44,997 nt of DNA from a virus: IMG/VR virus record IMGVR_UViG_3300005537_000012, positions 1 through 44,997 of that record; one strand, written 5' to 3'. Position numbers and translations under genes: made by a program. This document shows, one piece after another, positions 10,982-42,741 of this stretch. The stretch's first letter is position 1, and the number at the start of each line of letters is the position of its first letter. Below the pieces are notes generated by a model. The model ran no database searches and was not told where the DNA came from. It saw only the letters and a list, made by a program, of their open reading frames with translations.

Positions 10982-13900
10982 TTGCTATACGCAGACCTAC
11001 TTGACGTTCCGATTGAGGTCTTTGGCGGATATACTCCTGCAATTCCACCGCAGAACCTTCCGCCAGGGGCCTCTCCTTTTTGTCAGGATGTTGAATTTCC
11101 AATGGGTTCTGTCCGCCAGCGTGGAGGTTTGCAGAATTCTTTTCCATTTGCGACTTTTCCACCGACAGCTGCTATAAATGGTTTAAAGACGTATAGTACT
11201 CCTACTCTTGTAAAACGTCTTATGGTTTGGGATTCATTTGGAAATCTTTATAAAGAAAATCCACAAGGAGTTCTTAATCTTCTTTTTTCTCGGCCACAAG
11301 GAGCAAATACTCTTTATCAGTCAACCACTTTGTTTGGTCGTGAATATCAAGCTTTCTTGTCAAATTTAGGAAATGCCGTTGATATTCCTCGCCAATATGA
11401 TGATACAAACTGGGATAGAGTAAGCCAGATAGGACCTGGAGCGGCGCCGACCGCGGTTCAATCTGCTACAGCCGGAAATATTGCTGTTGGAAATCATCAA
11501 GTAAGTGTTGCCTTTATAACCAGGCAGGGTTATATCACATTTCCTGCTGTTCCACCGACAACCTGGAACCAGGCTGGAGCAAGTAAGCAAGTTGATTTAA
11601 CCAATATTCCGATTGGTCCTCCAAATATAGTTGCAAGGCTTCTGATTTTTACACCAGTTATTATTGCCCCGGCTGTTACTGGTACTTTTTACTCATTGCC
11701 AAATGGAAATTCTCAATTAACAACAAATACGTTAATGCTCATAAATGATAATATAACTACGGTATATACCGTTGATTTTACGGATGCAATTCTCATTACT
11801 GGTTTTAACGCTACTTATTTGTTCACTCAAAGAGAACTTGGAGAATGTTCTTTTGCTGGTGGATACAATTCCAGAACAGTATTTCTTGGTGAACGTAATA
11901 AACAGCAAAATGTCGTGAATTTTACTTTTGATGGTGGTTTTGGTGGTGGGGCAATAAATCCTACTCTTGGTTCTCAAGGCCCAAACAATTGTTCAGTTGG
12001 TTCTGATATTGCTGTTACAAGTGGAGTTGCATGGAGCAATCCTGGGAATATTGCCATAGCGGCTCAAAGCGCTACATTTGCAGCTGGATTAAATGCTAAT
12101 AAGTTTTCTGATTATTTAAGGGCAACAGGATTTGGATTTATAATACCGTCAGCCGCCACTATTCTTGGAATAACTGTAACTATCTCAAAAAGACAAGGTG
12201 GAGTCCAGAAACAACTTTATGACCGCTCTGTTCTTATAGTTAAGGGTGGTAATGCTGCTGGATTTGACCATTCAAATGGGCTTATCTGGCCAACAGCGCT
12301 TACACCTTTTGTTTATGGAGGTTCTGGAGACCTTTGGGGAACTACTTGGCTTCCCGCTGATATCAATGCCGCTAATTTTGGAGTTCAGATTCAATGTACT
12401 AATACTGATGTTTCAGCTGCTTCTCCTATAGTAAGTGCTTTTGTCACAATTACTGTTAATTATAGTTTGCCGGCGGTTGGCGGAGCGGTAGGACCGTTGG
12501 GATGGACTCAGACTGCTTCTTATGGTGGTGGAAGTTCGGCGATTACTGCCGGTCTTCTAGGAGATTGGCAGGATGCTTTTGCAATTACTGGTGACGGGGC
12601 AACAAATGTAAGAGGAAAAATCACACAACCAGTAAATAAAGATTATTTTGGAGCTCCTATTATTGCTCCGGCGACTACTTATCAAGTCAGAGTTAGATTG
12701 GCAAGAAATAATATTCTTGTCCAGGGAGCCATACATATTGATTTACAATCAACAATTGGGGCTTTTACAACTTCAGGTTTAATTGTTCAGGCAGCTCAGC
12801 TTACAACCAATTTTGTTGAATTTATCGGAGTATTGACAGCGGCAATTGCCGCTCCTCCTTCTGACTTAGTGATAGAAGTTTATGCGGATGGAACTCCTAC
12901 CAATGGTGGAATATTCATAATTGATTCAATTGAAATATTCCCGATGAATTCTCCGTTCAATTATTCAACGGCATGGCTTTCTCATGCTTTTAATCCTGAA
13001 TCATTTGATAATACTACAAGTCAGATTCAGATTCGCCCTAATGACGGGCAACAGCTTCATGCTGCATTTCCTATAAGGAATAATTATTATTTTGGAAAAG
13101 ACAATTATTTGTGCTATGTAACTGATGACGGTCAGAATGAGCCGGCATCCTGGGCAGTTAATGAAGTTTCAGCAACTATCGGCATTGCTGGTCCTAATGC
13201 CTGTGATTGGACTGAGGAATGGGCGGCATTTGCTCATCGAACTGGAGCATACTTATGCTGGGGTTCAGACCCGGTTAAAATTACGCAAGAAATTGAAGAA
13301 GATGCTTCATTAACAGGTAAGATTGTCTGGAATTCTATTAATTGGGCTTTTGACTTTAATATATGGGTGCGTATTGACCAAACTAATCGTAGAATTCTAA
13401 TTGGTGCACCAGTAAATGGAGCCGTTGTTCCAAATATTGTTTTTGTTCTTGATTATAAATGGCTTGATTCTCCGCAGGATATTGCTTCTAGCCCCATGGT
13501 TACTTATTCGGCTTTTACCGGTAAAATCCTGGCTCATGGGCGAGGCCGGCGTTGGACTTATTGGAATATCGCTGCAAGCAGCATGTGTTTTGCTGAACGA
13601 ACTGATGGAACTGCTCAGCCGTTTTTTGGAAATTCAGCAGGTAATGGAAATGTCTGGCAGCAGGTTCCTTGCAACGTGCAAGCTTATGACCAGTTAGTGA
13701 CAGGCATTGGTATCACATCTCTAATTATCAATGCTGTTTATAACAGTTATTTTGCTCCATCAGGAATGGAAGAACAAGGACTTCAACTTGGTGGGCACCA
13801 GAAACTTCTTGGTTATATTAAATGGAGTGCTCGTGGAACGGGAAATTTATTTTTGTCAATTGTTTCTGGAAGTAGAACAACAGTATTGAGGACTTATGCT

Positions 13901-14068
13901 CTTTCACTTACTCCACTATCTGATTCAGGCCGCGGAGTAAATATTAAAAGTGAACGATTTTCTTTTAGCATATCAACGAATGCTGTTGGTTCTTGGTTTC
14001 AGTTGGAAAAATGGATTTTTTGTATGAAGAAGGCACCAACAATGCTTGTCACAGGTACGAATACATGA
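10982..14068 (+). CDS. Large tail structural protein (1028 aa; position of a nozzle / tail tubular B-like gene)
   Basis: TTG start after GGGGG. Longest ORF in the genome, AT-richer than its neighbours. Assignment is by size and order. Confidence 0.6.
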   Translation: MLYADLLDVPIEVFGGYTPAIPPQNLPPGASPFCQDVEFPMGSVRQRGGLQNSFPFATFPPTAAINGLKTYSTPTLVKRLMVWDSFGNLYKENPQGVLNLLFSRPQGANTLYQSTTLFGREYQAFLSNLGNAVDIPRQYDDTNWDRVSQIGPGAAPTAVQSATAGNIAVGNHQVSVAFITRQGYITFPAVPPTTWNQAGASKQVDLTNIPIGPPNIVARLLIFTPVIIAPAVTGTFYSLPNGNSQLTTNTLMLINDNITTVYTVDFTDAILITGFNATYLFTQRELGECSFAGGYNSRTVFLGERNKQQNVVNFTFDGGFGGGAINPTLGSQGPNNCSVGSDIAVTSGVAWSNPGNIAIAAQSATFAAGLNANKFSDYLRATGFGFIIPSAATILGITVTISKRQGGVQKQLYDRSVLIVKGGNAAGFDHSNGLIWPTALTPFVYGGSGDLWGTTWLPADINAANFGVQIQCTNTDVSAASPIVSAFVTITVNYSLPAVGGAVGPLGWTQTASYGGGSSAITAGLLGDWQDAFAITGDGATNVRGKITQPVNKDYFGAPIIAPATTYQVRVRLARNNILVQGAIHIDLQSTIGAFTTSGLIVQAAQLTTNFVEFIGVLTAAIAAPPSDLVIEVYADGTPTNGGIFIIDSIEIFPMNSPFNYSTAWLSHAFNPESFDNTTSQIQIRPNDGQQLHAAFPIRNNYYFGKDNYLCYVTDDGQNEPASWAVNEVSATIGIAGPNACDWTEEWAAFAHRTGAYLCWGSDPVKITQEIEEDASLTGKIVWNSINWAFDFNIWVRIDQTNRRILIGAPVNGAVVPNIVFVLDYKWLDSPQDIASSPMVTYSAFTGKILAHGRGRRWTYWNIAASSMCFAERTDGTAQPFFGNSAGNGNVWQQVPCNVQAYDQLVTGIGITSLIINAVYNSYFAPSGMEEQGLQLGGHQKLLGYIKWSARGTGNLFLSIVSGSRTTVLRTYALSLTPLSDSGRGVNIKSERFSFSISTNAVGSWFQLEKWIFCMKKAPTMLVTGTNT

Positions 14069-15408: not shown

Positions 15409-16752
15409 ATGGCAATTGATGTTGACAACTATGAAGGCATAGATACCGAAGAGGACGAACTCAAGAAGCGGCCGGCAAATTATGGGCCGCCCGCTCCTGA
15501 CTCTCCGGATATTACAGCGCCTCTGCCGGCCGGAGGCATCCAGCCAGTTTCAACCCCTGGCCCGCCTCCTCCAATTGAAGGAACACCGGGGGCTGAATAT
15601 GCTCCTGTCGAATCGAACCGGCCGGCTGAACCACCATTACCGTCTAGGCCGCAATACCAGCCACCGGATAAGCCAAGCTTGGGAAAGCGAATTGCCGTAG
15701 GAATGGCTGCTTTTGGCAATCCACAACTTGGTGCTGAAGCTGCTCACCGAGTCTTTGAAGAACCAAAACAAGAAGCTATGCAGAAATATCAAGCTGCAAC
15801 TGGCCAGTATAATACTGAATTCCAGCAAGGTCTTGAACAGCGCCGGGAAATTCGTGAAAGAAATAAAGAAGAATCTGAAGCGAAACTTCGCGGAGCTCAA
15901 GCCGGACAATTTGAAAGAGTTCCAGTCACTCTTCCAAATGGACAAATTGCTTACATACAGCAAAAGGATGTTGAAAAACTTCTTGGTACTGAAACGACTG
16001 CGGCTGCTGGTCAGAAAAAGGTTGAGACCCAGGGGCAAACAGCTCGGGATGTTGCTAATAAGAAAGTTGAGAACCAGCGCCACAATGTAAAGGTAATGGG
16101 TGATGGTACTTATGAAGAACTTGAGCCTGGGAAGTGGACAAAGATTGGCTCAGCTCCTCCGCGGACGGAACCAGGGAACTACGCTCCCATATATGACCCA
16201 GATTCAGGAGATTTTGCAGGATGGGTTAACCCAAAGAGCCAGCATTTTATTGGCGCCAATGAAGTCGGTGCTCCAGGTGGTGGGGCAGGGATTACGCCAG
16301 CCAAGCCAACTGGCCAGGCTGAATCAAGGCGTGAGCAGGCTAAAGTTGTTTCTCGAGCCGCTGACGGGCTCATCAAAACGATTCAGGCCAATAAGGATGC
16401 TGTCGGCGACGTGAATGCTATTATCCAGTCGGCTTTTCTTGGTACACCTCTAGCTGATAAACGGCTTTCAGGTATTGCAACTGAAATTGCTTCATTTGCG
16501 GCTTTGCAGCCGGCCCTTCACGGGTTCCGTGGCCAAGATGCCCTTCGTGAATTCATTAAATTTATTGGCGGAGTGCCGAAAGATGCTGATGCTCTCATTG
16601 CATCTATCCAGGCTATCAAGAAAACTGCCGGGTATTTTACTCCGCCAAAGAAAACTCCTAACGCTCCTGGTGGAAACGAATTGACTCCAGCAGCCCCAAA
16701 AACAGCCGCTGAATATCTGGATAAGCTTAAGCAGAAAGGTGCTCCGCACTAA
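15409..16752 (+). CDS. Pro-rich putative internal virion protein (447 aa)
   Basis: RBS AAGGAG; assignment by position. Confidence 0.5.
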   Translation: MAIDVDNYEGIDTEEDELKKRPANYGPPAPDSPDITAPLPAGGIQPVSTPGPPPPIEGTPGAEYAPVESNRPAEPPLPSRPQYQPPDKPSLGKRIAVGMAAFGNPQLGAEAAHRVFEEPKQEAMQKYQAATGQYNTEFQQGLEQRREIRERNKEESEAKLRGAQAGQFERVPVTLPNGQIAYIQQKDVEKLLGTETTAAAGQKKVETQGQTARDVANKKVENQRHNVKVMGDGTYEELEPGKWTKIGSAPPRTEPGNYAPIYDPDSGDFAGWVNPKSQHFIGANEVGAPGGGAGITPAKPTGQAESRREQAKVVSRAADGLIKTIQANKDAVGDVNAIIQSAFLGTPLADKRLSGIATEIASFAALQPALHGFRGQDALREFIKFIGGVPKDADALIASIQAIKKTAGYFTPPKKTPNAPGGNELTPAAPKTAAEYLDKLKQKGAPH

Positions 16753-18914
16753 TGGCTAATGGAGACCAGGCAACCGGAACAGTCGACTTCTTGAATGACC
16801 CTGACTTTCAGGGTTTGCCGGCTCAAGAAAAGCATCAAGTGATGTTGTCACTTGACCCGGACTATAAAGCTCTTCCTCCAGGTGAGCAAGCAAAAGCCCT
16901 GAATACTATTCATTATGGGCCTAATGGAACGAAGTTTGAGCAGGAACGTCCGGGAACTGGTGTTAATACTCAAGGTGCTGGTAAAGCCGCCTGGGAATCA
17001 ATTAAAAAAATACCTAGTTCAATTGGAAGTACACTCGACCCGACACAAGGACTTTCTGGTGCTGGTTTAACTTATGCTGGGGTTAATCCAAGAAAAGGAA
17101 CAGTTTCAGAAAGACTTAATGAAATTCCTGCTGTCCAAGCTTATCATGAATTTAGTTCTGCTCATAAAGACCCTCATGCTTATAAAGGTGAAGCACCTGT
17201 TGCCGCTCTTGGTTCTTTTATAGGAGCAAGTGATGAGTCCGCTCGCCGGCATGCAGAACGTGGAGAAGGTGGGGCAATTCTTGGAGAAGCTGCCGTGCCC
17301 GCGGCGTTAGCTGTTGGCAGTGAAGCTTTTCATCAAGTTGCAATGCCAAAGATTAAGGCTGGTCTTGAATCTCGCCGGTTGCGGTTAGGCCCTGAAAACA
17401 TTGAAGCTGGCCTTGATACTCCTGGTGGTAAGCGCGGACAACGAGCTGCTGACATGCAGCGTGATATTCACGTCGCTACCGGCGATCTTGCTGAGATTGG
17501 CCGCGAGACTCCTGGCAAAGTTACACGCATGCTGACTAGGACCAGCAATGCCGAAGCCCTCCACGACCTTGCTGAAAAGATTGATGCTCGCCAGGAGGAC
17601 ATGTGGGAGAAAGGTCATGAGCCTGGAATCCAGCGCCATGCCCAGGCTCCAGTTGACCAGAACAGGATTGTGGCAGCCGGCCAGAGAGAACTTACAGCCG
17701 CGGCGACCCAGGCAAATGCTACTGAAGCAGCGGCTGCTTCCAAATGGCTTGACGAGCAGAACGTGCCGATGACCCTGGAGCATGCCGATAATCTTATCAG
17801 GGAGATTAACGAAGACTTGAAAGGAAAAGGCGCCGAGACCCGTTACGGTCCACTCCAGGTCCGGACACGCCAGGCTGTGGTTAAAGCACTTCGTGCTGAA
17901 GTTGACCGGGTGCTCGGCGATGCTGGTGAAGCTGGAGTCAAAGCTGTTAACCGCCGGTGGGGAGCTCTTGAGAATATTAAGAACCGGTTGCGTGAGAATG
18001 CCGTCAGTGCCGCTCGCAAAGAAAATAAAGAAGGTTTCTTGCCACAGTGGGCTCATACTTATGCATTCCTGCATCCGGATATGGGGTTGTCTATCGGTGT
18101 AGGTATCAATACAGCAAAAGCCCTGGCTCCGTCTCTTCCTGGCCAGACCCTCCGCGGAGTCCGCCAGCTTGGGAAAACCAGTTTAACCGCACCTTATGAA
18201 GCCGTCCCGCCTTCAGGGTGGGGCACACCACCCGCAGGGTTGCTGCCAGCCCCATCCCCGCAATTGCCCCTCCCTGGAGCCGCTGAGGTCAATCATCCAA
18301 CCGGACCAGCTTCACCGGCCGGCCCGATTCCTCCTCAACCTGGTCCGGGTGTGCAGGCGCCTCGCCAGGTTTATCGCGCTCCTGAAACTGGCCAGATGCA
18401 GCGAGGATATCTTGGAGTCAATCCTCCAATTGAAATGGGCCGCACGGCTGAGGGTGGCCCGATGTATGAGCCAGTAACGCCGCCATTTGAAACTCCGCGG
18501 CCGCCGGCCGACCAGCGGAAGGCTATGCTGCCTTATGCCGGTACCGAACGGCGCAGCGCGGCCGCTGTCAGCGGCGCGGACCCGATGCGCATGGCCAGGA
18601 TACAAGTCCTCCGTGACGTCATCGCCGACCCAATGGCTACTAGTCGAGATAAGGTCATAGCCCGGCAGCAACTGGATGATATGCTGGCGAATCCCTTTGA
18701 ACGGACGAATCCTGCTGAAGTCGACGTGAATAAAGCGAAGCAAAAGAATGAGAAAACAAAGACGAAAGAAGAAGCGACTGCGGCTTCGGAGAAACGTAAA
18801 GAAGGGCAGAACAAAAGATTTGAAGAAAAAAGAAAAGTATCTCGTAATAAAAAACTTAAAGATTTAACTCCTGGTGAAGAATTTGTAAGGAAGTTTCCAA
18901 AGGAGAAGAAATGA
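16752..18914 (+). CDS. Putative internal virion / ejection protein (720 aa)
   Basis: TAATG coupling. Large ORF with a Pro-rich segment and a basic C-terminus. Assignment by position. Confidence 0.5.
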   Translation: MANGDQATGTVDFLNDPDFQGLPAQEKHQVMLSLDPDYKALPPGEQAKALNTIHYGPNGTKFEQERPGTGVNTQGAGKAAWESIKKIPSSIGSTLDPTQGLSGAGLTYAGVNPRKGTVSERLNEIPAVQAYHEFSSAHKDPHAYKGEAPVAALGSFIGASDESARRHAERGEGGAILGEAAVPAALAVGSEAFHQVAMPKIKAGLESRRLRLGPENIEAGLDTPGGKRGQRAADMQRDIHVATGDLAEIGRETPGKVTRMLTRTSNAEALHDLAEKIDARQEDMWEKGHEPGIQRHAQAPVDQNRIVAAGQRELTAAATQANATEAAAASKWLDEQNVPMTLEHADNLIREINEDLKGKGAETRYGPLQVRTRQAVVKALRAEVDRVLGDAGEAGVKAVNRRWGALENIKNRLRENAVSAARKENKEGFLPQWAHTYAFLHPDMGLSIGVGINTAKALAPSLPGQTLRGVRQLGKTSLTAPYEAVPPSGWGTPPAGLLPAPSPQLPLPGAAEVNHPTGPASPAGPIPPQPGPGVQAPRQVYRAPETGQMQRGYLGVNPPIEMGRTAEGGPMYEPVTPPFETPRPPADQRKAMLPYAGTERRSAAAVSGADPMRMARIQVLRDVIADPMATSRDKVIARQQLDDMLANPFERTNPAEVDVNKAKQKNEKTKTKEEATAASEKRKEGQNKRFEEKRKVSRNKKLKDLTPGEEFVRKFPKEKK

Positions 18915-19237: not shown

Positions 19238-19634
19238 ATTAGCCAGTTACATGCAGCCTCTCGCGATGCAGTTACTGGACCAGGCAGGCGCAGCCGGCCT
19301 CGACCCTGTAGTTGAAGATACCGGCCGGACCGCGGATGAGCAAAAACTGAAAGTTTCTTCGGGCGTGAGCTGGACTGTTCATTCAAAGCATCTTCCCCAG
19401 CCTCCGGAACAAAAGAGCGAGGCTATTGACGTAGTTCCTCGGGTTTGTATGGCTTTGAAATACTGGGGATGGAACGGAACCATTAAAACAAGCCACCCGT
19501 ATTGGGGAAAACTCATCACTATCGGCGAGAGCCTGGGTCTTCGTTGCGGTGTATATTTTCCTCATCCAGACCCAGGCCATTTTGAATACATACACCCCCA
19601 ACGAGGGTCAGAGGATGCAGCCAATGTCGCTTAA
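19218..19634 (+). CDS. Endolysin, peptidase M15 (VanY / L-Ala-D-Glu peptidase-like)
   Basis: RBS AGGAGG 19205-19210. Motifs DTGRTADEQ, HSKH...AIDVVP and DPGHFEY match the zinc-ligand H..D..H pattern. Confidence 0.75.
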   Translation: MGNRISELASYMQPLAMQLLDQAGAAGLDPVVEDTGRTADEQKLKVSSGVSWTVHSKHLPQPPEQKSEAIDVVPRVCMALKYWGWNGTIKTSHPYWGKLITIGESLGLRCGVYFPHPDPGHFEYIHPQRGSEDAANVA

Positions 19635-21732
19635 ACTATTCAGATTCGCATTTCTGGGGCTCTTTCTGACGTTATTTTGTCAGGCGCAGGAAGTGCGTTA
19701 CGACGGGGTTGTGCAGCAGCGTAGCGGTCTCCCTGGCCCGGGAGTTACCATCGCAGTTTGCACACAGCCGGCTGTCACAACTACGACTCCCTGTTCCCCC
19801 CTGGCTACGCTCTATACAAATTCAGGCGGAGGCACTGTTTGTTCAGGAACATTGCTCCCGCCGGCGCCTCCAGGTTCCGCTTGTTCTAATCCAATGATTG
19901 CCGATGGATTGGGAAATTATCACTTTTATGCCGCCCCAGGCCAGTACACGTTGCAATTCTATGGGTTTGGGGTAACGCCATATATTATTCAGGATTTTAA
20001 CATTACTTGTTCCGTTGGATTTTCCTGCACCATTACCGGGCCGCTGAACGCCAACGGTGGTATCTCGACGAACAAAGTAAACAACATTGTCTACATTGAT
20101 GGCACAGTAAACACGACCCTTGCAGCCTATCTAGCCGCGCCTTCCGCCAACACTACGGTGGTTGTGCCATCCAATCAGACGATTTCGAGCGACATAATTA
20201 TCAGCGTCGCCGGGTTGAAAATCACCTGCGAGAATGGCGCGACACTCACATACACCACTGCGGGCAGGTTGCAGTTTCAGGGAGACCGAAGCGGCATAGA
20301 AGGATGCAAGCTGATCGGTCCCGGTTCTGGCACTTCGGGGCTTGAGGCCGCGTTGTTTACCGGCACGAATCAATTCTTCAGGCGCAACTACTATGGAGCT
20401 TTTGGAAGTACTGCGGGTAATGGAGATGTGACCGTGAGCGCCGGTGCATCGCATTTCAGCTTCACGGACAACGTCGAATATGCCGCTGATGGGGATTTCT
20501 CCTTCTACGTGAACAACTGCTGCACCGCGAACGCGACAATGACGGACATTCGCGTGGAGAACAACGACATAGGAGAGTTCATCGCCCACGCGACGACTGC
20601 GGGCACGGTCATCAATGGGATTGCCTCCGTAGGAAATCATTTCCATGCGGCGCAAGCCAGCAAAATTGAGTTCTGCGAGGAAATCGGCGTTTTTGGCGGC
20701 TCATCTGTGCTTAACGTCACGAGTATTGGCAACAAGTGCCAATTGACGGCAAGCGGCGGGGATGGCGGATATTCCTTCGCTTCCGTGGTGAACTACACCG
20801 AGAGCGGAGACCAGTTCTACGCGAATGGCTTCCAATACACCATCTGTGGTTCTGAGAACGTCGCTACTCAGTCGGGAAGTCTTACGGGAAATCTTTTCGC
20901 GACTGGTTCTCAGTCCACCGGTGTCTGCGGTATTGATGTGAATCCGAACGGGTCCGGAAATACAGATATTTCCGTGAATTCCAATATAATCGTTGGTTCG
21001 CCGGCGAGCCCGAGCCAAGCCTTCTCCGGGATTTATGTGGGGACTGTCAACGCGCTTTCCTTGAAGAACATCAATGTGAGCGGAAATATCGTGGATATCA
21101 CCGGAGCCACCGGAAAATCTGCTGCTATCTGGGTGCAGGCGAACAACGCCGGGGCAAATGTCAGCAATGTGCATGTCACAGGGAATCTTTTGTATGGTCC
21201 CGGAAATGCCGGAGATAACGGAATCGTGTTTGAGCGCGATACGGGGACGATGGTTCACAACGTGGTCGGGCCGAACCATGTTTTCAACTTCAATACGCCC
21301 TATTCATCGAATGCGAACAGCCCGAGTGCGGGATTCGCCGCAGGAACAGTGGATTCTGTTCAATCCGGGCAAGTCGTCGCCAGCGCCGGAGTTCCCTGCA
21401 CCAATGGCGAGCTGGCCCTCTCCGCTGGCTGGCAATCCACCGGCTCCGCAACTGTCACGGCAGTAGCGGGGAACGGTCAGACTTGCTCTTGGACGATTAC
21501 TACAGGCACTACAACGGCGGCTAATCCCACGGTCACAGATACGCTGACAAATACACTCCCAACGGCCACGACAGTCTGTGAATTGAACATCCATGGTGGA
21601 ACGCACACAGCCGCGGCTGGCGAAGGATTTCAGCAGACCACGCTTTCAGCAACGGCGCCGGTGTTTACCTTCAACGGCACGCCGACCGCAGGCGGCACGA
21701 CTTATTTTGTAACCCGTAGATGCGGGCCATGA
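19615..21732 (+). CDS. Signal-peptide beta-helix protein (CarboxypepD_reg-like domain plus right-handed beta-helix; depolymerase/tailspike-like)
   Basis: An internal ATG of ORF 19549-21732 gives MQPMSLKLFRFAFLGLFLTLFCQA|QE. Also GVVQQRSGLPGPGVTIAV..GNYHFYAAPGQYTLQF, then repetitive N/G/T/V-rich beta-helix-like coils. Confidence 0.65.
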   Translation: MQPMSLKLFRFAFLGLFLTLFCQAQEVRYDGVVQQRSGLPGPGVTIAVCTQPAVTTTTPCSPLATLYTNSGGGTVCSGTLLPPAPPGSACSNPMIADGLGNYHFYAAPGQYTLQFYGFGVTPYIIQDFNITCSVGFSCTITGPLNANGGISTNKVNNIVYIDGTVNTTLAAYLAAPSANTTVVVPSNQTISSDIIISVAGLKITCENGATLTYTTAGRLQFQGDRSGIEGCKLIGPGSGTSGLEAALFTGTNQFFRRNYYGAFGSTAGNGDVTVSAGASHFSFTDNVEYAADGDFSFYVNNCCTANATMTDIRVENNDIGEFIAHATTAGTVINGIASVGNHFHAAQASKIEFCEEIGVFGGSSVLNVTSIGNKCQLTASGGDGGYSFASVVNYTESGDQFYANGFQYTICGSENVATQSGSLTGNLFATGSQSTGVCGIDVNPNGSGNTDISVNSNIIVGSPASPSQAFSGIYVGTVNALSLKNINVSGNIVDITGATGKSAAIWVQANNAGANVSNVHVTGNLLYGPGNAGDNGIVFERDTGTMVHNVVGPNHVFNFNTPYSSNANSPSAGFAAGTVDSVQSGQVVASAGVPCTNGELALSAGWQSTGSATVTAVAGNGQTCSWTITTGTTTAANPTVTDTLTNTLPTATTVCELNIHGGTHTAAAGEGFQQTTLSATAPVFTFNGTPTAGGTTYFVTRRCGP

Positions 21733-27180: not shown

Positions 27181-27717
27181 TTATTCAGATTGTCCAGGGC
27201 TTTTTGCCGGGCAATTAGGCTCATGCCCGCGGCCTTCCCGGTATCCCTGGCAACAGGGTATGCCAGATTCTTCGATGCACTTCAAAGTATCCAGATACCC
27301 GTCAATGATACTGGCCAGGTCGGGAGGTTCATAGTTAGCACTCTTCCGTACTTTTCCTGAATATTTATCATTAACTGGATTCATAACGGTTTCAGTTGCC
27401 GTCAGTGTTTCACCTTGGAATTTGGTCATGTTAGACCGATGGACTTCTTCAAATAAGTCTTCGAGAATCGGACCCATGCCATATTCCACGGCTGTGCCCA
27501 CAACCACGTAAAGCAGGTCACAAAGCCCGTCAGCAACCTCAATGAGATTGTTTTCGTGCATTGCCTGGGATACTTCGCCGAGCTCTTCCATCATCAGCCT
27601 GAGACGAAGTACCTTAATCGAATCAGAAGGGTGGCCAGGTTTTTTCAAATCTGGATAACTGTTGTTCTGGTTGAACTGCTGTACCATTGCCGCCCAAGAC
27701 TTTTCTTGAACTTTCAT
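27181..27717 (-). CDS. MazG-like all-alpha NTP pyrophosphohydrolase
   Basis: LRLMMEELGEVSQA...EVADGLCDLLYVVVG...VHRSNMTKF matches the EExxE...D..D metal-binding helices. Confidence 0.65.
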   Translation of the reverse strand: MKVQEKSWAAMVQQFNQNNSYPDLKKPGHPSDSIKVLRLRLMMEELGEVSQAMHENNLIEVADGLCDLLYVVVGTAVEYGMGPILEDLFEEVHRSNMTKFQGETLTATETVMNPVNDKYSGKVRKSANYEPPDLASIIDGYLDTLKCIEESGIPCCQGYREGRGHEPNCPAKSPGQSE

Positions 27718-28662: not shown

Positions 28663-28938
28663 TCACCCTTTCCGCGCCGCTCGCTGTTTATCCCGTTCCA
28701 GCGATAAGCCAAGCATTCCCATACGGCCACGAATTGCTGCCTTATCGGTCCTAACGTACATCCCTTCGACATTGCACCGCAGGGCCGCTTCGCTGGGGCC
28801 ATTCTCGGCCATACACAATCTCGCACCGTCGCAGCCGCAATCAGGACAGCAACAATAAATCAAGCGCCCATCTACCAGTTCTCCATCCTCGGTCAATGGG
28901 TTGCCGTAATCATCTTCGCGTTTAGCTTTGTTACTCAT
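28663..28938 (-). CDS. Cys-rich small protein (CCCPDCGCDGARLC)
   Basis: ATGA overlap with the PolA stop; internal start of ORF 28663-28953. Confidence 0.5.
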   Translation of the reverse strand: MSNKAKREDDYGNPLTEDGELVDGRLIYCCCPDCGCDGARLCMAENGPSEAALRCNVEGMYVRTDKAAIRGRMGMLGLSLERDKQRAARKG

Positions 28939-30728
28939 GATGTTTCCTTCCAATTATCTCCTTCAGAACATTCCCAGGTTATTGGTACCCGCAGTTTGAA
29001 TTCTTGAATCGCAAAACATTCTTCTAAATCTTTAAACTTCTTCAAATTCTTTCGTTCATCGTAAAGTCTCTTTAACTTTAGCTTCATCAGGTCAGCAGCA
29101 CTGCCCTGAAGAATCGAATTAAGCCCTGAATAAAAACGGTCGCCAGTATGATAACGACGACGACGGCCAAGAATAGTGCGAACGTAACCGCGCTTCTCAG
29201 CCAGTTCGGAGCAATAGTATAGTAACCGCTTAGCTTCAGGTACTTTTGCATCATATTGGTCCATAAGTCCTTGAACATAGTCAATGTCATTTGTTCCCAG
29301 CATGGATGCCGCTTTATCCACACCGCCTCCATATAGTTTCATGAAATTGAAATTTTTAGCATGGTCGTATATCATGCATTCTTTGAGGAGCTCTTTATGT
29401 ACAAACTTGTGGAAGCTTATGTTTGGGTCGTTCGCATAAGCTTCAATTAACCGCTTTGAATACGGTCGTGGCACGCAAGAAAAGTGGGCGAATAGCCGGT
29501 ATTCAATTTGGCTGGCATCGGCGTGGAACCAACGGCCACCAAGGTCCCCGTTAACTTCGTCATGTACTGTGAACCGCATCAGGAAGTTTTCATGTCCACC
29601 AGATATAAACAACTCTCTGACTAACCAGGGGGAGGTTACCGGCGACTGAATCTTTTGCTTTGATGGCTTATAAACCTGCTGGATATTCACTTTGCTCGAG
29701 GCAAACCGGCCAGTTATGGTTCCATAATCATCAGCTCGTAACTGATGGAGCTGGTAGGGTAGATATCCATCCGGCGTCATTGCATCACGATATTTGATTA
29801 AATATTTCGACAGCAAACTGGCCAGGTCCCTGGCCTCAGACACCAACTGGACTTCTTTTATTTCAATATATTTATTCAGAATTACATCAGTAAAGCTGTC
29901 TTCACCGGCTGCGGTTCTTCCAGGTTTAATATTAAGATATTTGAATAGTTTTGATAAATCTTTTGATGAATCAGGCGATACCCGCAAACCTGTCCGCCGG
30001 TAGATTTCCATAATACGCGCGGCATAGGCTTCCTGGACTTCCCGTATCCAGCGATGAAGCTTCGGAACATCCAACTTGACTTTTTCCCGCTCCATTGACA
30101 ATATGCAATATATTAGACTATCTTCCAGGTCTATAACCCGGCGTAATTCTTGCTCAGCAATGTCTCCATCATAAACCATCGCCAAATCGTAAGTCAGCCT
30201 GGCATCATGTCTGGCATATGGCGCAGCCAGGTCCACGGGTATATCGGGTATTTCTGCTCGAGGAATCTCCCGACCATTAAGCTTTGGAACTACTTTTCCT
30301 ATTCCTAACCTGTCCTGGGCAAGAGTTTCCAGGTCAAACTTCCTTCGTGAATCGTCTAATAATGCCGCGGCATGCTGTACTTCATGAGGTATTACCCCGA
30401 TGGCTTCCAGGTCCACGCCAAATTCTCTTAAACGCTCGATGTCATTCTTTGCTGCCCTGAAGAATACTTCCCGGCCAGCCAGGTTGTCAATCAACCAGTT
30501 TTTAAGGTTCTCCGGGTCGTACTGCTTGCCTTCCGGATGCCCGCAAGGAAGGTACCACTCGCTGCCAGCCGTGGCCAGGGAGACCCCGACGACCGGCGAC
30601 CCTGGTCCCAGGCCGCGATGTTCGGTATCCAGCGCAATGAACTCGCCAGGCTCCAGGACCGGGAACCGGTCCAGGGAACCCGACGACTTCTCACCTGACA
30701 AGTTTAATTTGAGCTGTGGTATAATCAT
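28935..30728 (-). CDS. Family-A DNA polymerase with 3'-5' exonuclease domain (atypical motif order)
   Basis: Exo I ALDTE, Exo II KNDIERL, Exo III YARHDARL. Motif A HADASQIEYR, motif B HAKNFNFMKLYGG, QGSAADLMK. VHDE lies at aa 388-391. Confidence 0.9.
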   Translation of the reverse strand: MIIPQLKLNLSGEKSSGSLDRFPVLEPGEFIALDTEHRGLGPGSPVVGVSLATAGSEWYLPCGHPEGKQYDPENLKNWLIDNLAGREVFFRAAKNDIERLREFGVDLEAIGVIPHEVQHAAALLDDSRRKFDLETLAQDRLGIGKVVPKLNGREIPRAEIPDIPVDLAAPYARHDARLTYDLAMVYDGDIAEQELRRVIDLEDSLIYCILSMEREKVKLDVPKLHRWIREVQEAYAARIMEIYRRTGLRVSPDSSKDLSKLFKYLNIKPGRTAAGEDSFTDVILNKYIEIKEVQLVSEARDLASLLSKYLIKYRDAMTPDGYLPYQLHQLRADDYGTITGRFASSKVNIQQVYKPSKQKIQSPVTSPWLVRELFISGGHENFLMRFTVHDEVNGDLGGRWFHADASQIEYRLFAHFSCVPRPYSKRLIEAYANDPNISFHKFVHKELLKECMIYDHAKNFNFMKLYGGGVDKAASMLGTNDIDYVQGLMDQYDAKVPEAKRLLYYCSELAEKRGYVRTILGRRRRYHTGDRFYSGLNSILQGSAADLMKLKLKRLYDERKNLKKFKDLEECFAIQEFKLRVPITWECSEGDNWKETS

Positions 30729-31152
30729 ATTTATATAGGATAATCATCTGGCTTAGAATCTTCGCGCCTTCGGAGTCGGCGTAATCCTCCAGCACGATTA
30801 CCCTCCTGATGCCGGTATTCAGAATCATCTTGGCGCACACGAAGCATGGGCAGCAGCTTACATAGATTGTATGGGCCAGGTCCAGGCGCCAGCATTGAAG
30901 CATGGCATTCTGTTCAGCATGGATAGCCATGCAGCGGGAAGTATCTCCATGTCTGTCATAAGCTCCGGGGCAGGGCATGTCCTGGATACAGTGCTGGAAT
31001 CCTGAAGGTGGCCCGTTGTATCCGGTCGAGAGTATCCGCCCGCGCTCATCAGTTATGATTGCTCCAACCGACCGACGCACACAAGTGGACCTAGCGGCAA
31101 CATCTACCAGCATCTTCACGAAGTAAGTTTCTTTTGAATCACGCACGGACAT
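30691..31152 (-). CDS. dCMP deaminase
   Basis: ARSTC..VGAIITD...HAEQNA...CPCFVCAK zinc motifs. Start chosen at the ATG overlapping the ThyA-like stop. Confidence 0.85.
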   Translation of the reverse strand: MSVRDSKETYFVKMLVDVAARSTCVRRSVGAIITDERGRILSTGYNGPPSGFQHCIQDMPCPGAYDRHGDTSRCMAIHAEQNAMLQCWRLDLAHTIYVSCCPCFVCAKMILNTGIRRVIVLEDYADSEGAKILSQMIILYKYDYTTAQIKLVR

Positions 31153-32032
31153 CCTCCAAATAAGCAAGAGCCTCAGCATTGGTTGCAGAAGCCAGTACCT
31201 TCTCGTAAATTTTCCAGACATCATTGAGTTCAAATCCAAGGGCACTCGGGTCCACCAGGCGGTTGATGCCAGCCGGCAACGACAACGAGGTTGGCAGCTG
31301 CGGACTTCTCCCGCTCCTGCCCATCGGCGCATTCACAATCCCTCTGGCCAGTTCCCAGTGTGGTTCATAGATATGCGATGAACCTAGGTTGAGGGTTATG
31401 GACCCCAATGCTATTGGCCAGCGCAGAGCGTGGCGCAAGGCGCCGACCAGGAAATTACCAAGCATTGTGAAGTTATAGATATCATATGGTAGCCCAAGCC
31501 AGGCATCAGAACTCCGCATAGTAGCTATGATATGCAGGTACCAGTTGCGGCTCGTCCATTCAGACTGCCGGCGAAGAAGAAATTGGAGTGAGAGAGTGCA
31601 TGGAACATATCGTTCATAAGCTGTTATCTTTATATCTGATTGAGCTTCCCATATACTCATCACAGCTTGGCGGCTTTCTGGGTCACGGGATAATGTCCCC
31701 AGAATGAATGGCCACTGAGGTGCTAGCCGCGGACCATATGACGGATAGACTCCACCCTGGCCATCAGTTTCGTAGCCGGCCAGGTTCTTGTTAAACCGCT
31801 CGAGCAATTTGTCTTCAAGACCAAGCTGAGTTGTCAGCCACTGGGCGACCAAGAACCGGTAGTTGAGTTTTCGTTCCGGGTCAATGAGAATGTTCTGATA
31901 GGCATCTTCAATAATTAACCTGGTATGAATCGCCTCTCGGCATGGTTTTCCGCGTGGAGATACAATGGGTTGTTGTAAAAGCGTATTCAATAATACTACC
32001 CAATTGTGATAAATTCCATTTTCAGGTGTCAT
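31139..32032 (-). CDS. Thymidylate-synthase-family pyrimidine C5 transferase, predicted dCMP-specific (hydroxymethylase or methylase)
   Basis: VPCTLSLQF (catalytic Cys145), MRSSDAWLGLPYDIYNF (Asp184 where TS has Asn), SSHIYEPH. RBS AAGGAGAA. Confidence 0.8.
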   Translation of the reverse strand: MTPENGIYHNWVVLLNTLLQQPIVSPRGKPCREAIHTRLIIEDAYQNILIDPERKLNYRFLVAQWLTTQLGLEDKLLERFNKNLAGYETDGQGGVYPSYGPRLAPQWPFILGTLSRDPESRQAVMSIWEAQSDIKITAYERYVPCTLSLQFLLRRQSEWTSRNWYLHIIATMRSSDAWLGLPYDIYNFTMLGNFLVGALRHALRWPIALGSITLNLGSSHIYEPHWELARGIVNAPMGRSGRSPQLPTSLSLPAGINRLVDPSALGFELNDVWKIYEKVLASATNAEALAYLEDVRA

Positions 32033-32823
32033 GGGCTGTTTCTCCTTATCTGGGCAAGTTCGCGGTTGGTTTTCTTCAAAGGCTCATCAATAATTGTGGC
32101 TGGCACAAACTCTCTGAATTCTACCGATACTTCCGTATTGCAGAACGCAATTTCATGTTCTTTGTAACCTGACCGGAACACTTTTCTAGTCAGTTTCATA
32201 TAACTTCCGGTCATGTCATCAAACTTCATGCCAGGAACTACGAAGATAAACCGCGGCCGCTGGCTGCCGACCATGCCGGCCGGCAACGGGTTCCCTTCAA
32301 TTTTCTCGAGGGACTTCGCCACACTCCGGTAGTTCCATCTGGTATAATCATACCAGATATAATTCCGATTCAATCTCACGTTAAACAATCTATTTACATA
32401 TTGATTATAAACCGAGCTGAACTTCACAGCATCCTGGACATATTCATCTTTTTGCCGGCCAAGCCAATTTGCCAGGGCAACACGCTTCGGCGGAATACAC
32501 ATCACAATCTGGCCGTCAATTGCCTCGATGTATCGCTCAAGTATATTTTGAACATCCGGAGTCATTACCCATTCTTTACGCATGACCGCGCCATAGATAG
32601 CATCAGAGATGTGGAAACGGTCACAGACGATTTTTAAATTCGGTTCCTGGGCAGCACTGTAGAGCGGGTCGTAGAAAAAGTGAAAGATAGATTCTTCCGA
32701 TACCCTGGCTTCAGGCGGAGGTATGCCAAACTTCAGGAGCTTGTATCCTTGTCTTTCGACGAGCTCGGCGGCCAGGGTAGACTTGCCGGAACCGTCAGGT
32801 CCTTCGAGGATTATGACTCTCAA
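32029..32823 (-). CDS. Thymidylate-kinase-like dNMP kinase with a C-terminal extension of about 90 aa
   Basis: TTG start after GGGGAGG. P-loop ILEGPDGSGKST and CDRFHISDAIYG. Confidence 0.7.
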   Translation of the reverse strand: MRVIILEGPDGSGKSTLAAELVERQGYKLLKFGIPPPEARVSEESIFHFFYDPLYSAAQEPNLKIVCDRFHISDAIYGAVMRKEWVMTPDVQNILERYIEAIDGQIVMCIPPKRVALANWLGRQKDEYVQDAVKFSSVYNQYVNRLFNVRLNRNYIWYDYTRWNYRSVAKSLEKIEGNPLPAGMVGSQRPRFIFVVPGMKFDDMTGSYMKLTRKVFRSGYKEHEIAFCNTEVSVEFREFVPATIIDEPLKKTNRELAQIRRNSP

Positions 32824-33938
32824 AACAACCTCCCCTGTTTCACTTGTTTTTTAGTCACAGTAAAATCAGCAACCTCGCCAGGTTTCACAACACGTACCAT
32901 ACTGGTCACGGCGTCCAGGTCCGCCAGCCTGACAGTTTTAGAGGTATTTATTTGCATCATTTCAAGAATCCACTTTGCGACCGGCGGGCAGACTCCTTTG
33001 CTGAGGTACAACCGAAAGTCTCTGAGGGTCCTACCTGGCCATTTATAATCGCCTGGGAATCCCATCAGGGCACAATACTCCTCAAGATACAGCTCCCTTC
33101 CCATTACGAAGAAACTAGAATCATGGAGGATTGTGGTCCCGAATTCTTCCGGGTTCAGAACCCGCGGGAGTTTCACGCCGAACCGGCCACCCAGGTTCCA
33201 GCGGTCCCGCACTTCCTGATAGTTCGGCCCTGGGTCATCTATGTCAAGTAACTTCTTGCCTATTTGGAGTAATGAACCTATATGCTCACCAGATAGTAAT
33301 TCCTTGTAGATTCGCTTTTCAGTGAACCCGGCGCCTACCAGGCATTTCACAGCATCGCGAATCTCCGCATTTGGCTCCAGGGTGGTTCCCTTTCGCAGCA
33401 GGATATCACGGACCCGACGGATGTTTGGATAGTGGTGTAAAATCAATTGTGGTAACTTAGTAAAGATTGTCCAGACCCGCGGGCGCCACTGAGGCACACC
33501 AAATGTCACGGCATTCTGATGAATATAGAATACATTGTACTTGTACTTTTTGGCAAACTCCTCGTGAACCTGGCGGCCGGCCGCCAGGATGCCCGGAACA
33601 GATTCAATGGCCAGCGCCGGAGCTCCCTGGCTTAAAGCATAATCCATAACCATTTTATGAGGTAGGAAGTGGTCCGAGTCGATGCCCTTGCGGTATGGTG
33701 ACTGGGTAGAGAATGCAGCGCAGGGAGGGTGAGCGATAACCAGGGAGTGATGCAAATGGTCCTTCGGCCAGGGAGGTTTCTCTATATACTTCAGGTCTGG
33801 GAAGTTAGCTCGCTGGACCGGTAGACCAAAACCGCAATCTTCATAAGAGCCACGGATAGGTAAACCAAGCTGCGATGCGGCAATTGTGAGACTGCCGGCG
33901 TAGGAATTAATGATGAGAACATCATTGGGCGGTTTCAA
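32820..33938 (-). CDS. DNA (cytosine-5) methyltransferase
   Basis: Motif I NSYAGSL, IV HPPCAAFS, VI AIESVPG, VIII GVPQWRPRVW, IX-X MGFPGDY..SKGVCPPVA. TTG start with an in-frame TAA two codons upstream. Confidence 0.8.
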   Translation of the reverse strand: MKPPNDVLIINSYAGSLTIAASQLGLPIRGSYEDCGFGLPVQRANFPDLKYIEKPPWPKDHLHHSLVIAHPPCAAFSTQSPYRKGIDSDHFLPHKMVMDYALSQGAPALAIESVPGILAAGRQVHEEFAKKYKYNVFYIHQNAVTFGVPQWRPRVWTIFTKLPQLILHHYPNIRRVRDILLRKGTTLEPNAEIRDAVKCLVGAGFTEKRIYKELLSGEHIGSLLQIGKKLLDIDDPGPNYQEVRDRWNLGGRFGVKLPRVLNPEEFGTTILHDSSFFVMGRELYLEEYCALMGFPGDYKWPGRTLRDFRLYLSKGVCPPVAKWILEMMQINTSKTVRLADLDAVTSMVRVVKPGEVADFTVTKKQVKQGRLF

Positions 33939-40694: not shown

Positions 40695-41210
40695 ATGAAT
40701 TTAACTTGGCTGTCAGTTACCATCGCCCTTCTGTTCGCCAGCATCATTTCAAAACCAACGGCAACTTATCGCTACCACGGTCCCGCAGTACTCAATGATT
40801 TATCTGTGACACCAGGCAAAGTCCGCACGACCAATGCCAAAGAAGTTTGTTACGGCGGTTCTACTTCCCAGTATCGCCACACAACTGAAAAAGAAAAGAA
40901 TCAGGTTTATGAGTGGTATGGTGCCAAAAAGAAGCCGGGTATCTGTTGCGAAGTTGACCACTTGGTCTCACTTGAACTTGGCGGCGCAGATGAAGTTGAG
41001 AATCTGTGGCCTGAACCTTACTCGCCGAAACCAGGCGCCCATGAAAAAGACTTGGTTGAAAACTGGCTGCACAAAGAAGTCTGTGCCGGACGCATGCCAC
41101 TAACTCAGGCCCAGGCGAAGATATCCCAGGATTGGTACGCAGTTTTCTTGATGATGCATGAGCGGGCTCAGGCGGCATCGTATTGGGCGGAGGTTGTCGA
41201 TGGACATTGA
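40695..41210 (+). CDS. HNH endonuclease with an N-terminal hydrophobic (signal/TM-like) segment
   Basis: CEVDHLVSLELGGADEVENLWP (HNH core) and KDLVENWLHKEVC. N-terminus MNLTWLSVTIALLFASIIS. Confidence 0.7.
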   Translation: MNLTWLSVTIALLFASIISKPTATYRYHGPAVLNDLSVTPGKVRTTNAKEVCYGGSTSQYRHTTEKEKNQVYEWYGAKKKPGICCEVDHLVSLELGGADEVENLWPEPYSPKPGAHEKDLVENWLHKEVCAGRMPLTQAQAKISQDWYAVFLMMHERAQAASYWAEVVDGH

Positions 41211-42741
41211 CGTTCCCCTCCAGCCCAAGCAGCTCGAAATGTACAACCTGGCTGAACAATCCCAGTTCACGACTATCGGCATCGGCGGGTCAAGAGGTTC
41301 ATCGAAGAGTCATGGCGGCAGGGCAGTCATGCTTCTTCGCCGGCTGAAGTATGCCAACACGGCCGGCGCGATTTTCCGGCGCAAGATGAAACAGATTCGC
41401 AGCAATCATCTGGAGAATGGTTACTTCAAACAGTATCCCTTCATGCGGGAATGGTGGCAAGAATCCAAGCGCACAATCCAGTTGCCTAATGGTTCCCGAA
41501 TCGTATTCATCTGCGCGGAACACCCAGGAGACATTGAAGACTTCCAGGGTGATGAGTACATGGACCTGATGGTTGATGAAGCCGCCCGTGTCACGGAGAA
41601 CGAGCTTGTCAAACTTAACGTGACCAGACGCTGGACCGGCCGGTTTGGCGGCAAGGCCATGGATGACTGGATGTGCAAGACATGGTGGTTGATGAATCCT
41701 GGAGGGCCGGGCCATAACTACATTCGCCGGGTAATGTACAAGAAAGAATTCCATGGTGGCGAGAATCCATCTGCCTACAAGTTTCTTCAGGCTTATGCGT
41801 GGGACAATGTCGAATGGTCTCTATCGCAGCTTGAATCTCGTGGATTGACAGCAAAGGATTATTATTCTTGGTCAGATGAGGAACGGTTCAAGTTTTTCAT
41901 TACTTACACACAGTATGGCCAGGAACTGAACGCACTGCCAAAAAGGTTGCGGCTCGGCTGGCTACTCGGGAATTGGGATGAATTTGCCGGCCAGTTCTAT
42001 GATATTTGGGACCCAGACAAGCACGTTGTTCGCTGTATGCCCGACCGCGAATGGCATCCGCGATGGCTTGCTATTGACTGGGGATTCCAGCACCCTATGG
42101 CTTGTTACTGGATGGCACGGGTTGGAGACAAGACAAAAGTTTACCGCGAGCGGGTGGATAACCTCCACTCAGCTCGGGCTCAGGCGCAGGAAATCGTCGA
42201 CAGGACACCACTTGATGAGAGAAAACTGGTTGACGCAATTTACTTGTCGCCTGACGCTTTTCAGAAGCGCAGTGAGCAAGATTCGTTTGCTGAATTGATG
42301 GGCCAGGTATTTACTCAGTATGGAATGCCGTACCCGACGCCAGCCGATGATGACCGTAAGCATGGTGCTCAGTGCATGTATGACCTGATGAAATACAACC
42401 AGTTGGAAATTGACCCGTCATGCAAAAGTTTGATTGAAACAATCCCGATGGTCTGCACTGAAGAAGATGACCCGGAAGAGATTGAAAAGTTCGATGGGGA
42501 TGATGCCTGGGATGCTTGCCGGTATGGCTTGAAGAGTCGACAGCGCCCTGGAGTTAAACCAGTTGTTGAAGTTGCGACGGAGAAAATCGCTGCATTCGCT
42601 TTGGCTAAGAATAAAGAAGTCGAAGATTTGGATATCAATACACTTGCTCAGTTGCATCGCCGCGCTACACACCAAGAACGAGTGAGACGCGGGAAGCGGC
42701 ACGGCGGGCTTGGAAGAATCTGGCGGCCGCAGTCAGTATAA
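41200..42741 (+). CDS. terL: Terminase large subunit
   Basis: RBS GGAGG 7 nt upstream. Walker A GGSRGSSKS and Walker B DLMVDEA. Nuclease motifs LAIDWGF and GDDAWDACRYG. Confidence 0.85.
   Translation: MDIDVPLQPKQLEMYNLAEQSQFTTIGIGGSRGSSKSHGGRAVMLLRRLKYANTAGAIFRRKMKQIRSNHLENGYFKQYPFMREWWQESKRTIQLPNGSRIVFICAEHPGDIEDFQGDEYMDLMVDEAARVTENELVKLNVTRRWTGRFGGKAMDDWMCKTWWLMNPGGPGHNYIRRVMYKKEFHGGENPSAYKFLQAYAWDNVEWSLSQLESRGLTAKDYYSWSDEERFKFFITYTQYGQELNALPKRLRLGWLLGNWDEFAGQFYDIWDPDKHVVRCMPDREWHPRWLAIDWGFQHPMACYWMARVGDKTKVYRERVDNLHSARAQAQEIVDRTPLDERKLVDAIYLSPDAFQKRSEQDSFAELMGQVFTQYGMPYPTPADDDRKHGAQCMYDLMKYNQLEIDPSCKSLIETIPMVCTEEDDPEEIEKFDGDDAWDACRYGLKSRQRPGVKPVVEVATEKIAAFALAKNKEVEDLDINTLAQLHRRATHQERVRRGKRHGGLGRIWRPQSV

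Follow-up and report, generated by a model that had tools for sequence, protein, structure and literature searches.

Motif C ahead of motif A: a phage family A DNA polymerase with a probably permuted palm

We describe a gene for a family A (Pol I-type) DNA polymerase, polA, that lies on the minus strand at positions 28935-30728 of a 44,997-nt stretch of viral DNA (IMG/VR record IMGVR_UViG_3300005537_000012, positions 1 to 44,997; below, the window is this whole stretch). Family A enzymes carry the catalytic motifs of their palm in the collinear order A-B-C. In this gene a block resembling the motif C hairpin is encoded just before motif A, and a first-pass annotation of the same DNA, made from its letters, had read this as a local permutation of palm connectivity in which both carboxylate sites are retained. 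That reading is supported by profile scores obtained after the block is moved back, by a clade of 11 proteins with the same order, by purifying selection and by the predicted topology. The protein is very probably the replicative Pol I-type polymerase of an uncultured tailed phage of about 45 kb, with a palm that would be internally permuted, C-A-B in place of A-B-C.

The polymerase gene and its displaced motif C

The open reading frame (ORF) at 28935-30728 is unbroken over its 597 amino acids (aa); the first-pass annotation had found the frame continuous on re-translating the DNA of the displaced block by hand. The features on which the argument depends are listed here with their positions in the window and the evidence that places them; de-permutation refers to the rearranged sequence described further below.

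28935-30728, minus strand (stop codon 28935-28937): family A DNA polymerase with a probably permuted palm, complete gene, 597 aa (ORF listing and translation, Pfam, Foldseek)
30180-30644, minus strand: 3'-5' exonuclease domain, aa 29-183 (PF01612)
28938-30059, minus strand: polymerase domain, aa 224-597 (PF00476 over aa 224-561, and to aa 595 after in-silico de-permutation)
29532-29585, minus strand: relocated motif C block FLMRFTVHDEVNGDLGGR, aa 382-399 (profile alignment, DSSP of the AlphaFold model)
29556-29564, minus strand: codons of H389-D390-E391, the motif C catalytic triad in its new position (the sole HDE of the protein)
29484-29534, minus strand: motif A strand and start of its helix, RWFHADASQIEYRLFAH, aa 399-415, with the catalytic D404 (aligned to Bst motif A, ADYSQIELRVLAH)
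29325-29363, minus strand: motif B or O-helix, HAKNFNFMKLYGG, aa 456-468, with K458, F462 and Y466 (aligned to Bst RRQAKAVNFGIVYG)
29046-29135, minus strand: long helix with QGSAADLMK, aa 532-561 (DSSP; it leads into motif C in canonical enzymes)
29034-29057, minus strand: vacated canonical motif C site, ERKNL joined directly to KKF, aa 558-565 (a clean gap of about 21 columns against canonical relatives)
28950-28994, minus strand: C-terminal palm strand LRVPITWECSEGDNW, aa 579-593 (position verified; strand 585-590 in the model)

The family is clear from profile matches. PF00476 (DNA_pol_A) covers aa 224-561 with 99.5 bits against a cut-off of 34.3 (E = 2.5e-28), the 3'-5' exonuclease profile PF01612 covers aa 29-183 with 29.4 bits, and the protein matches the DNA polymerase family phrog_17 with E = 6e-63. 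The PF00476 match of the native protein spans profile positions 4-322 of 381 and stops short of the part that holds motif C, and alignments to Bst, Taq and Klenow break at aa 353-401 and end near aa 552-558. Each of the eleven motif strings that the first-pass annotation gives falls on exactly the residues assigned to it, among them Exo I ALDTE (aa 32-36), Exo II KNDIERL (aa 94-100) and Exo III YARHDARL (aa 171-178). The exonuclease residues D34, E36 and D175 are unchanged in 113 aligned homologs, as are D404 of motif A (HADASQIEYRLFAH, aa 402-415, on a strand at 399-405 in the model) and both W585 and W593 toward the C-terminus; in motif B, K458 and F462 are invariant in the homolog alignment, and K458, F462, Y466 and G467 are all present and conserved.

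The departure from the family lies in motif C. The string HDE (His-Asp-Glu) is found once in the whole protein, at aa 389-391, and D390 thus stands 14 residues before D404. No HDE occurs in aa 551-578, the region after QGSAAD where motif C normally sits, in agreement with the first-pass annotation. The same annotation had singled out a 20-aa insert, GHENFLMRFTVHDEVNGDLG, as looking like a complete motif C hairpin; its mapping to aa 378-397 and nt 29538-29597 of the minus strand is exact, and the likeness holds, with the profile placing aa 381-396 on motif C and AlphaFold predicting a hairpin there. Motif C, as TVHDE at aa 387-391, is therefore present in the family A sense but displaced (profile alignment, DSSP), and the collinear A-B-C order is not kept: the chain runs C-A-B. 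Judged by its sequence the protein is a family A DNA polymerase by homology in which this one family feature, collinearity, has failed; since the failure is one of topology and not of homology, we file the protein as a variant member of family A.

How good is the match between the moved block and motif C? Set directly against the canonical motif C of one relative, P0012, the block is identical at 10 of 12 positions (MRFTVHDEVNGD against LRFTVHDELNGD), an agreement much too close to be due to chance. For a measure that uses many sequences at once, we built a hidden Markov model (HMM) from 85 canonical relatives and no permuted ones. This canonical-only HMM splits the native protein into four pieces whose profile positions run 11-371, 531-546, 371-531 and 550-583 along the chain, and HMMER puts aa 381-396 on the motif C positions, 531-546. 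We then de-permuted the protein in silico, cutting out aa 382-399 and pasting them after N560. The canonical-only HMM gives 717.9 bits for the native protein, 768.5 for the de-permuted one, 738.7 with a scrambled block and 728.7 with the block deleted; de-permutation thus gains 50.6 bits, in a single collinear match, and stands about 30 bits above the scrambled block. PF00476, the profile that the first-pass annotation had named for such a check, behaves in the same way: on the de-permuted sequence it reaches 128 bits and covers positions 4-381 of 381, like the canonical P0013 and P0021, as compared with 99.5 bits and positions 4-322 for the native protein. A collinear, full-length profile match returns once the block is moved back, and true homology between this block and motif C follows. 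That the primary structure is permuted, and that the permutation has been fixed in evolution, is essentially certain.

Distribution, origin and conservation of the permuted order

A homolog search over 5.8 billion proteins returned 406 homologs, of which we classified the best 120 by the position of HDE relative to motif A and to QGxAAD. The permuted order is found in the top 11 (P0001-P0011, 51-100% identical to the query), whose HDE precedes the motif A Asp by about 14 residues and which lack one after QGxAAD; all lower-ranked relatives among the best 120 have the normal order, the nearest at about 50% identity. The alignment locates both ends of the move. Canonical relatives read '...ERKxLG-xxLRxTVHDExxGDxxx-...' about 20 residues after QGxAAD, and in them the motif A strand follows directly on RELFIxxxG. 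The 11 permuted proteins have a gap of about 21 columns after QGxAAD and carry 'xLMRFTVHDEVNGDLxG' inserted before the motif A strand, a block missing at that site from all 102 of the 102 canonical relatives in the alignment.

To place the change in time, we removed both hairpin sites and built a neighbour-joining tree from 113 homologs and 521 columns. The 11 permuted proteins form one clade (91 of 100 bootstraps) that is nested among canonical sequences, 10 nodes from the midpoint root. Its sister is canonical as well: the point estimate gives P0013, and the bootstraps, with weak support, give either P0012 or P0013. On this tree the permutation is a derived state that arose once, in the ancestor of a small phage clade. 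An exhaustive HMMER search found 16,377 PolA matches among 1.84 billion cluster representatives; in the best 150 of these 16,377 the permuted clade amounts to one representative at the 50%-identity level (P0002, 1145 bits), and the next match, at 682 bits, is canonical. No other permuted lineage and no intermediate with two hairpins was found among 260 homologous proteins. One apparent case of two hairpins, P0185, with a 'pre+post' pattern, was rejected, its upstream match being a chance SHDEE in a different loop. Proteins scored as having no HDE were likewise rejected as losses of motif C, as they carry VHDS, VHDA or VHDQ at the canonical site.

These variants deserve a remark of their own. 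VHDQ, VHDS or VHDA in place of VHDE is seen in the canonical P0013, P0100, P0152, P0153, P0184, P0195, P0217, P0233 and P0257; the first of these is one of the two canonical proteins nearest to the permuted clade. In this group of phage polymerases, strict conservation therefore does not extend to the Glu of HDE.

The order recurs in independent data. Two different samples, assembled independently, gave contigs that encode the identical protein (ENA ERZ27279678, 45,038 bp, and Logan SRR5579859, 44,927 bp), and further clade members lie on syntenic phage contigs of 12-46 kb from other runs and on IMG/VR and JGI contigs. With the same order in both assemblies and in 10 more, diverged proteins, a chimeric assembly, the objection that the first-pass annotation had raised against its own reading, is excluded. 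In deposited phages, by comparison, the C-to-A junction peptide was found with at least 80% coverage in 0 of 50,697 phage genome records. A DNA pattern for the junction, validated on the window and eight loci, had no match in 185,579 species-representative genomes; its matches are one contig from IMG/VR and two from JGI, each of which had already been assigned to the clade. None of the 11 permuted clusters comes from NCBI or UniProt sources, and the best relatives in cultured phages (of Variovorax, Pseudomonas and Stenotrophomonas) are about 31% identical and canonical. The search for the same order in metagenomic and phage PolA sequences, which the first-pass annotation had called for, thus ends with 11 proteins in one clade and with characterised relatives that are canonical.

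Within the clade the moved block is held tightly. Residues R385, T387, V388, H389, D390, E391, N393 and G394 are invariant in all 11 members, and motif A likewise, against a mean column identity of 69%. In 7 genomes the eight invariant hairpin codons take 2-4 synonymous forms each with zero replacements (for HDE the codon variants are CAT/CAC, GAC/GAT and GAA/GAG), and motif A shows the same pattern. Judged by these codons, the relocated block is under purifying selection. Outside the block, two fixed differences set the clade apart from its canonical relatives, the substitution T37H in Exo I and a short insertion at S362, and no others; since these are the sole other fixed changes, the remainder of the active site is intact. 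The Exo I change can be stated more closely: the motif reads DTEH (His37, 30618-30620, minus strand) in 11 of 11 permuted proteins, as against DTET in 74% of canonical relatives, and T37H is the sole fixed clade-specific substitution apart from the relocation of the hairpin.

A further substitution is shared with part of the canonical group. Alignment to Bst shows that Tyr454 (29364-29366, minus strand, in IYDHAKNFNF) replaces the O-helix Arg that stands four residues ahead of the Lys in R-x-x-x-K-x-x-x-F-x-x-x-Y-G, the equivalent of Klenow R754. It is invariant in the permuted clade. The idea that the loss of this Arg co-evolved with the permutation was rejected, since the canonical P0013, P0094 and P0118 carry Tyr at this position too.

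The predicted palm and its competing explanations

We predicted the structure with AlphaFold2 from the 113-sequence alignment. The model of the permuted protein has a predicted local distance difference test score (pLDDT) of 94.9 and a predicted template-modelling score (pTM) of 0.92, with pLDDT 94-97 over aa 371-410. Along this part DSSP assigns a short strand at 374-375, a loop, a strand at 383-388, a turn at H389-D390, a strand at 391-396, a turn at G397-G398 and the motif A strand at 399-405, followed by its helix. At the old site, the QGSAAD helix (532-561) passes through a short turn into a helix at 565-573, and the last strand lies at 585-590. The model has no hairpin at the vacated motif C site, where aa 551-578 are predicted as helix-turn-helix; the alternative acidic hairpin in the C-terminal region that the first-pass annotation had allowed for does not appear.

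The comparison with a canonical relative is direct. In the model of P0021 (pLDDT 95.4) we find a short strand at 353-354, a loop, the motif A strand at 361-367 and the QG helix at 490-513, and after that helix a hairpin at 520-526/529-534, a helix at 539-547 and the last strand at 560-565. The two models have the same elements, and the sole change is the location of the hairpin. In both, H-D forms the turn of the hairpin and Glu opens its second strand; the Asp of motif A stands last but one in a strand of 7 residues. The fold of the permuted model is close to those of Klenow and Bst (Foldseek E ~1e-27, template-modelling score 0.75-0.78), and fold searches of BFVD and PDB gave no closer and no permuted structural relative, the best BFVD match being 26% identical and the PDB matches all canonical Pol I.

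What would this mean for the palm? As a feature of general palm architecture, the second strand of the hairpin is the canonical neighbour of the motif A strand (PMC8310298); in the picture we propose, it would run antiparallel beside that strand, with its far end near the strand's start. The hairpin, which bears the second catalytic carboxylate pair D390/E391, has been shifted about 150 residues upstream and stands directly before the motif A strand. Because consecutive strands are here joined by two-residue turns, the second hairpin strand must pair with the motif A strand, and from the model we infer that E391 faces D404 with D390 at the same edge. The two-residue turn G397-G398, joining the hairpin to motif A, would then create a three-strand meander that rebuilds the same sheet, and at the old site a short turn now joins, in the model, the two helices that once flanked the hairpin. 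Such a change would be geometrically cheap, because the two ends of the hairpin adjoin each other. The alteration would be confined to how the chain threads its way through the palm sheet, and the enzyme would carry out normal two-metal catalysis with proofreading, using D404 with D390/E391, the O-helix residues K458, F462 and Y466, and the QGSAAD helix. The three-strand meander and the identical set of elements in both models argue, at the level of prediction, that the architecture of the active site is preserved.

As to how the order arose, a segment of about 55-60 nt that encodes the hairpin was most likely copied to the position before motif A and the original then lost, by way of an intermediate with two hairpins; an alternative route would be tandem duplication of the region from A to C, followed by deletions. 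Duplication and then loss is, on present sequences, a conjecture.

Several points weigh against an intact, permuted enzyme and its proposed history. The geometry of D390/E391 and D404 and the order of the sheet are derived from strand and turn lengths in a model, and the AlphaFold signal for the hairpin draws on just 11 sequences of the alignment. Tyr454, at the position of Klenow R754, could mean atypical nucleotide binding, though some canonical relatives share this Tyr. The survey of profile matches covers the best 150 of 16,377, and with no two-hairpin intermediate among the 260 proteins the evolutionary route stays at the level of conjecture.

The first two of these bear on a different explanation, in which the protein is a catalytically dead or repurposed PolA, for instance exonuclease-only or a structural component of the replisome, and the upstream block does not rebuild an active site. 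The empty canonical motif C site, the Tyr in place of the O-helix Arg and the predicted nature of the hairpin's placement in three dimensions would all fit with this. We nevertheless find it improbable. There is no variation in motif A, K458, F462, Y466, QGSAAD or the relocated HDE, and purifying selection acts on all of them; an invariant H-D-E-x-N-G across 51% sequence divergence is not expected of a dead enzyme, and Tyr at the Arg position is found in canonical relatives as well. The genome points the same way. Around polA the gene order is C5-methylase-like, P-loop kinase-like, ThyA-like, dCMP deaminase, PolA, small ORFs, MazG-like, SNF2 helicase, DUF7307 and Pam3_Gp34, and the canonical genes of P0013 and P0021 sit in the same order. 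Because canonical relatives occupy this neighbourhood, the permuted gene is the positional ortholog of an ordinary phage replicative polymerase. No second DNA polymerase was detected in the phage genome, only a Prim-Pol/helicase, in a genome that also encodes a terminase, a candidate major head protein and the SNF2 helicase; that polA encodes the sole DNA polymerase detected in an apparently complete phage genome argues that it is functional.

It is also conceivable that the hairpin folds and functions outside the canonical motif C position, in some other geometry in which, for example, other acidic residues bind metal. The exact placement comes from the prediction, and the loop that joins strand beta0 (aa 374-375) and the hairpin has to take another path than in canonical enzymes. 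Against such a geometry, which we regard as very unlikely, the two-residue turns between three successive DSSP strands force the canonical pairing with the motif A strand, the permuted and canonical models agree in strand length and in where HDE and the motif A Asp fall within their strands, and zero other clade-specific acidic substitutions were found. Finally, since the source is metagenomic, one might suspect an artefact of assembly or sequencing, or else suppose that motif C was simply lost and that an unrelated insertion happens to contain HDE. Here two independent assemblies and 10 diverged homologs from other samples have the same two junctions; pairwise identities of 51-83% exclude a single contaminated reference behind all 11 proteins; and the 10/12 identity, the HMMER placement and the roughly 30 bits over a scrambled block tie the insertion to motif C itself. 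This explanation is effectively refuted and carries next to no weight. We hold instead to a permuted palm in a working enzyme, and preservation of the active site and of activity is, on the models and sequences at hand, highly probable.

Genome setting and relation to known polymerases

The genes around polA form a nucleotide-metabolism cluster (30691-33938 and 27181-27717, both on the minus strand) that is syntenic in related phages. Its members are a C5-cytosine-methylase-like gene (PF00145, 36.8 bits), a divergent thymidylate-synthase homolog (PF00303, 46 bits), a P-loop kinase-like gene with weak AAA_33 and thymidylate-kinase matches, the dCMP deaminase and a MazG-like pyrophosphohydrolase; the genome of P0006 has ThyX in place of the ThyA-like gene. 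Judged from these genes, the cluster could reflect modified bases in the phage DNA. The start codon of polA overlaps the 3' end of the upstream dCMP deaminase by 38 nt (30691-30728), the same overlap is called in relatives, and this suggests that the two genes may be translationally coupled within the module.

The rest of the window is harder to name. Four large plus-strand ORFs at 2503-4977, 10982-14068, 16752-18914 and 19549-21732 (824, 1028, 720 and 727 aa) have zero Pfam or PHROG matches and presumably encode structural or tail proteins. The recognisable virion genes are a weak major-head match at 6390-7649 and the large terminase at 41158-42741, no more; by this measure the virion module is very divergent from anything catalogued. 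No tRNA genes were found in the window. The two assemblies of the genome (45,038 and 44,927 bp) differ in their start point, with polA near the contig end in one of them, which suggests that the phage genome in the window is complete and either circular or terminally redundant.

How, then, does this polymerase compare with known ones? It shares with canonical family A enzymes (Klenow, Bst and Taq, the phage PolA of the Variovorax VPv64, Pseudomonas and Stenotrophomonas siphovirus type, and P0012-P0021) the sequence family and the fold, the exonuclease motifs, motifs A and B, the QGxAAD helix, the sequence of the HDE hairpin and the C-terminal strand. It differs in having C-A-B where they have A-B-C, with an 18-aa block before motif A and about 21 columns gone after the QGxAAD helix. 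Other rearrangements of family A are of a different kind. The trypanosome enzyme POLIB reportedly has its exonuclease domain inserted in the thumb, and split or intron- or intein-interrupted phage PolA genes exist, so that the family tolerates rearranged domain order and interrupted genes. Those are domain insertions or gene splits that leave A-B-C intact, whereas here a single palm hairpin has moved within one ORF. The first-pass annotation was not aware of any described PolA with this topology; we found no permuted family A or Pol I DNA polymerase in the literature, where full-text searches gave only papers on RNA-dependent RNA polymerases (RdRps), and none in the 50,697 phage records.

It is among these RdRps that the closest parallel lies. 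The motif order C-A-B-D is known from the RdRps of Birnaviridae (VP1) and of Permutotetraviridae (Thosea asigna virus, TaV), whose crystal structures have an unchanged active-site architecture and which are active enzymes (PMC8310298). The order A-B-C is commonly taken to be universal, and these two families have been named as the sole exceptions to it among all known template-dependent polymerases (PMC8310298). In both systems the motif C hairpin stands directly before motif A, and the spacing of the catalytic Asp residues is similar: in TaV the motif C D351 lies 18 residues before the motif A D369 (PMC8310298), compared with 14 here. The two are otherwise unlike, one an RdRp of eukaryotic RNA viruses and the other a DNA-dependent family A enzyme of a tailed double-stranded DNA phage, with other templates and products. 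No homology to viral RdRps was detected, as Pfam gave only PF00476 and PF01612 and the structural neighbours were all Pol I-type; the phage enzyme would work like this class without belonging to it by descent. Because the polymerase families are unrelated, the phage permutation is an independent, convergent event. The palm topology thus appears, from sequence and model, to be new for DNA polymerases and convergent with a known oddity of RdRps. We consider it likely that the enzyme is fully active and is the first natural example of a DNA-dependent DNA polymerase whose palm is internally permuted (C-A-B), convergent with the RdRps of birnaviruses and permutotetraviruses.

For those who work with such genes there are practical consequences. 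Pipelines based on profiles or motifs truncate or misalign them, as Pfam does here at position 322 of 381, which affects surveys of phage diversity based on PolA and automated calls of a polymerase as inactive. For engineering, the clade would offer a naturally validated re-threading of Pol I-type enzymes, for example with new loop sites for insertions, splits or fusions near the active site. It also provides an unusually clean case for the study of non-circular permutation: the canonical sisters are about 50% identical and occupy the same slot in the genome, and the move of one 18-aa block is almost the only change.

If the enzyme is active, the C-A-B exception extends to DNA polymerases, and the same topological solution has been reached twice independently. 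The catalytic hairpin of the universal palm would then be a portable module that keeps its function when it changes place in the chain, and this would bear on how the ferredoxin-like palm folds and evolves.

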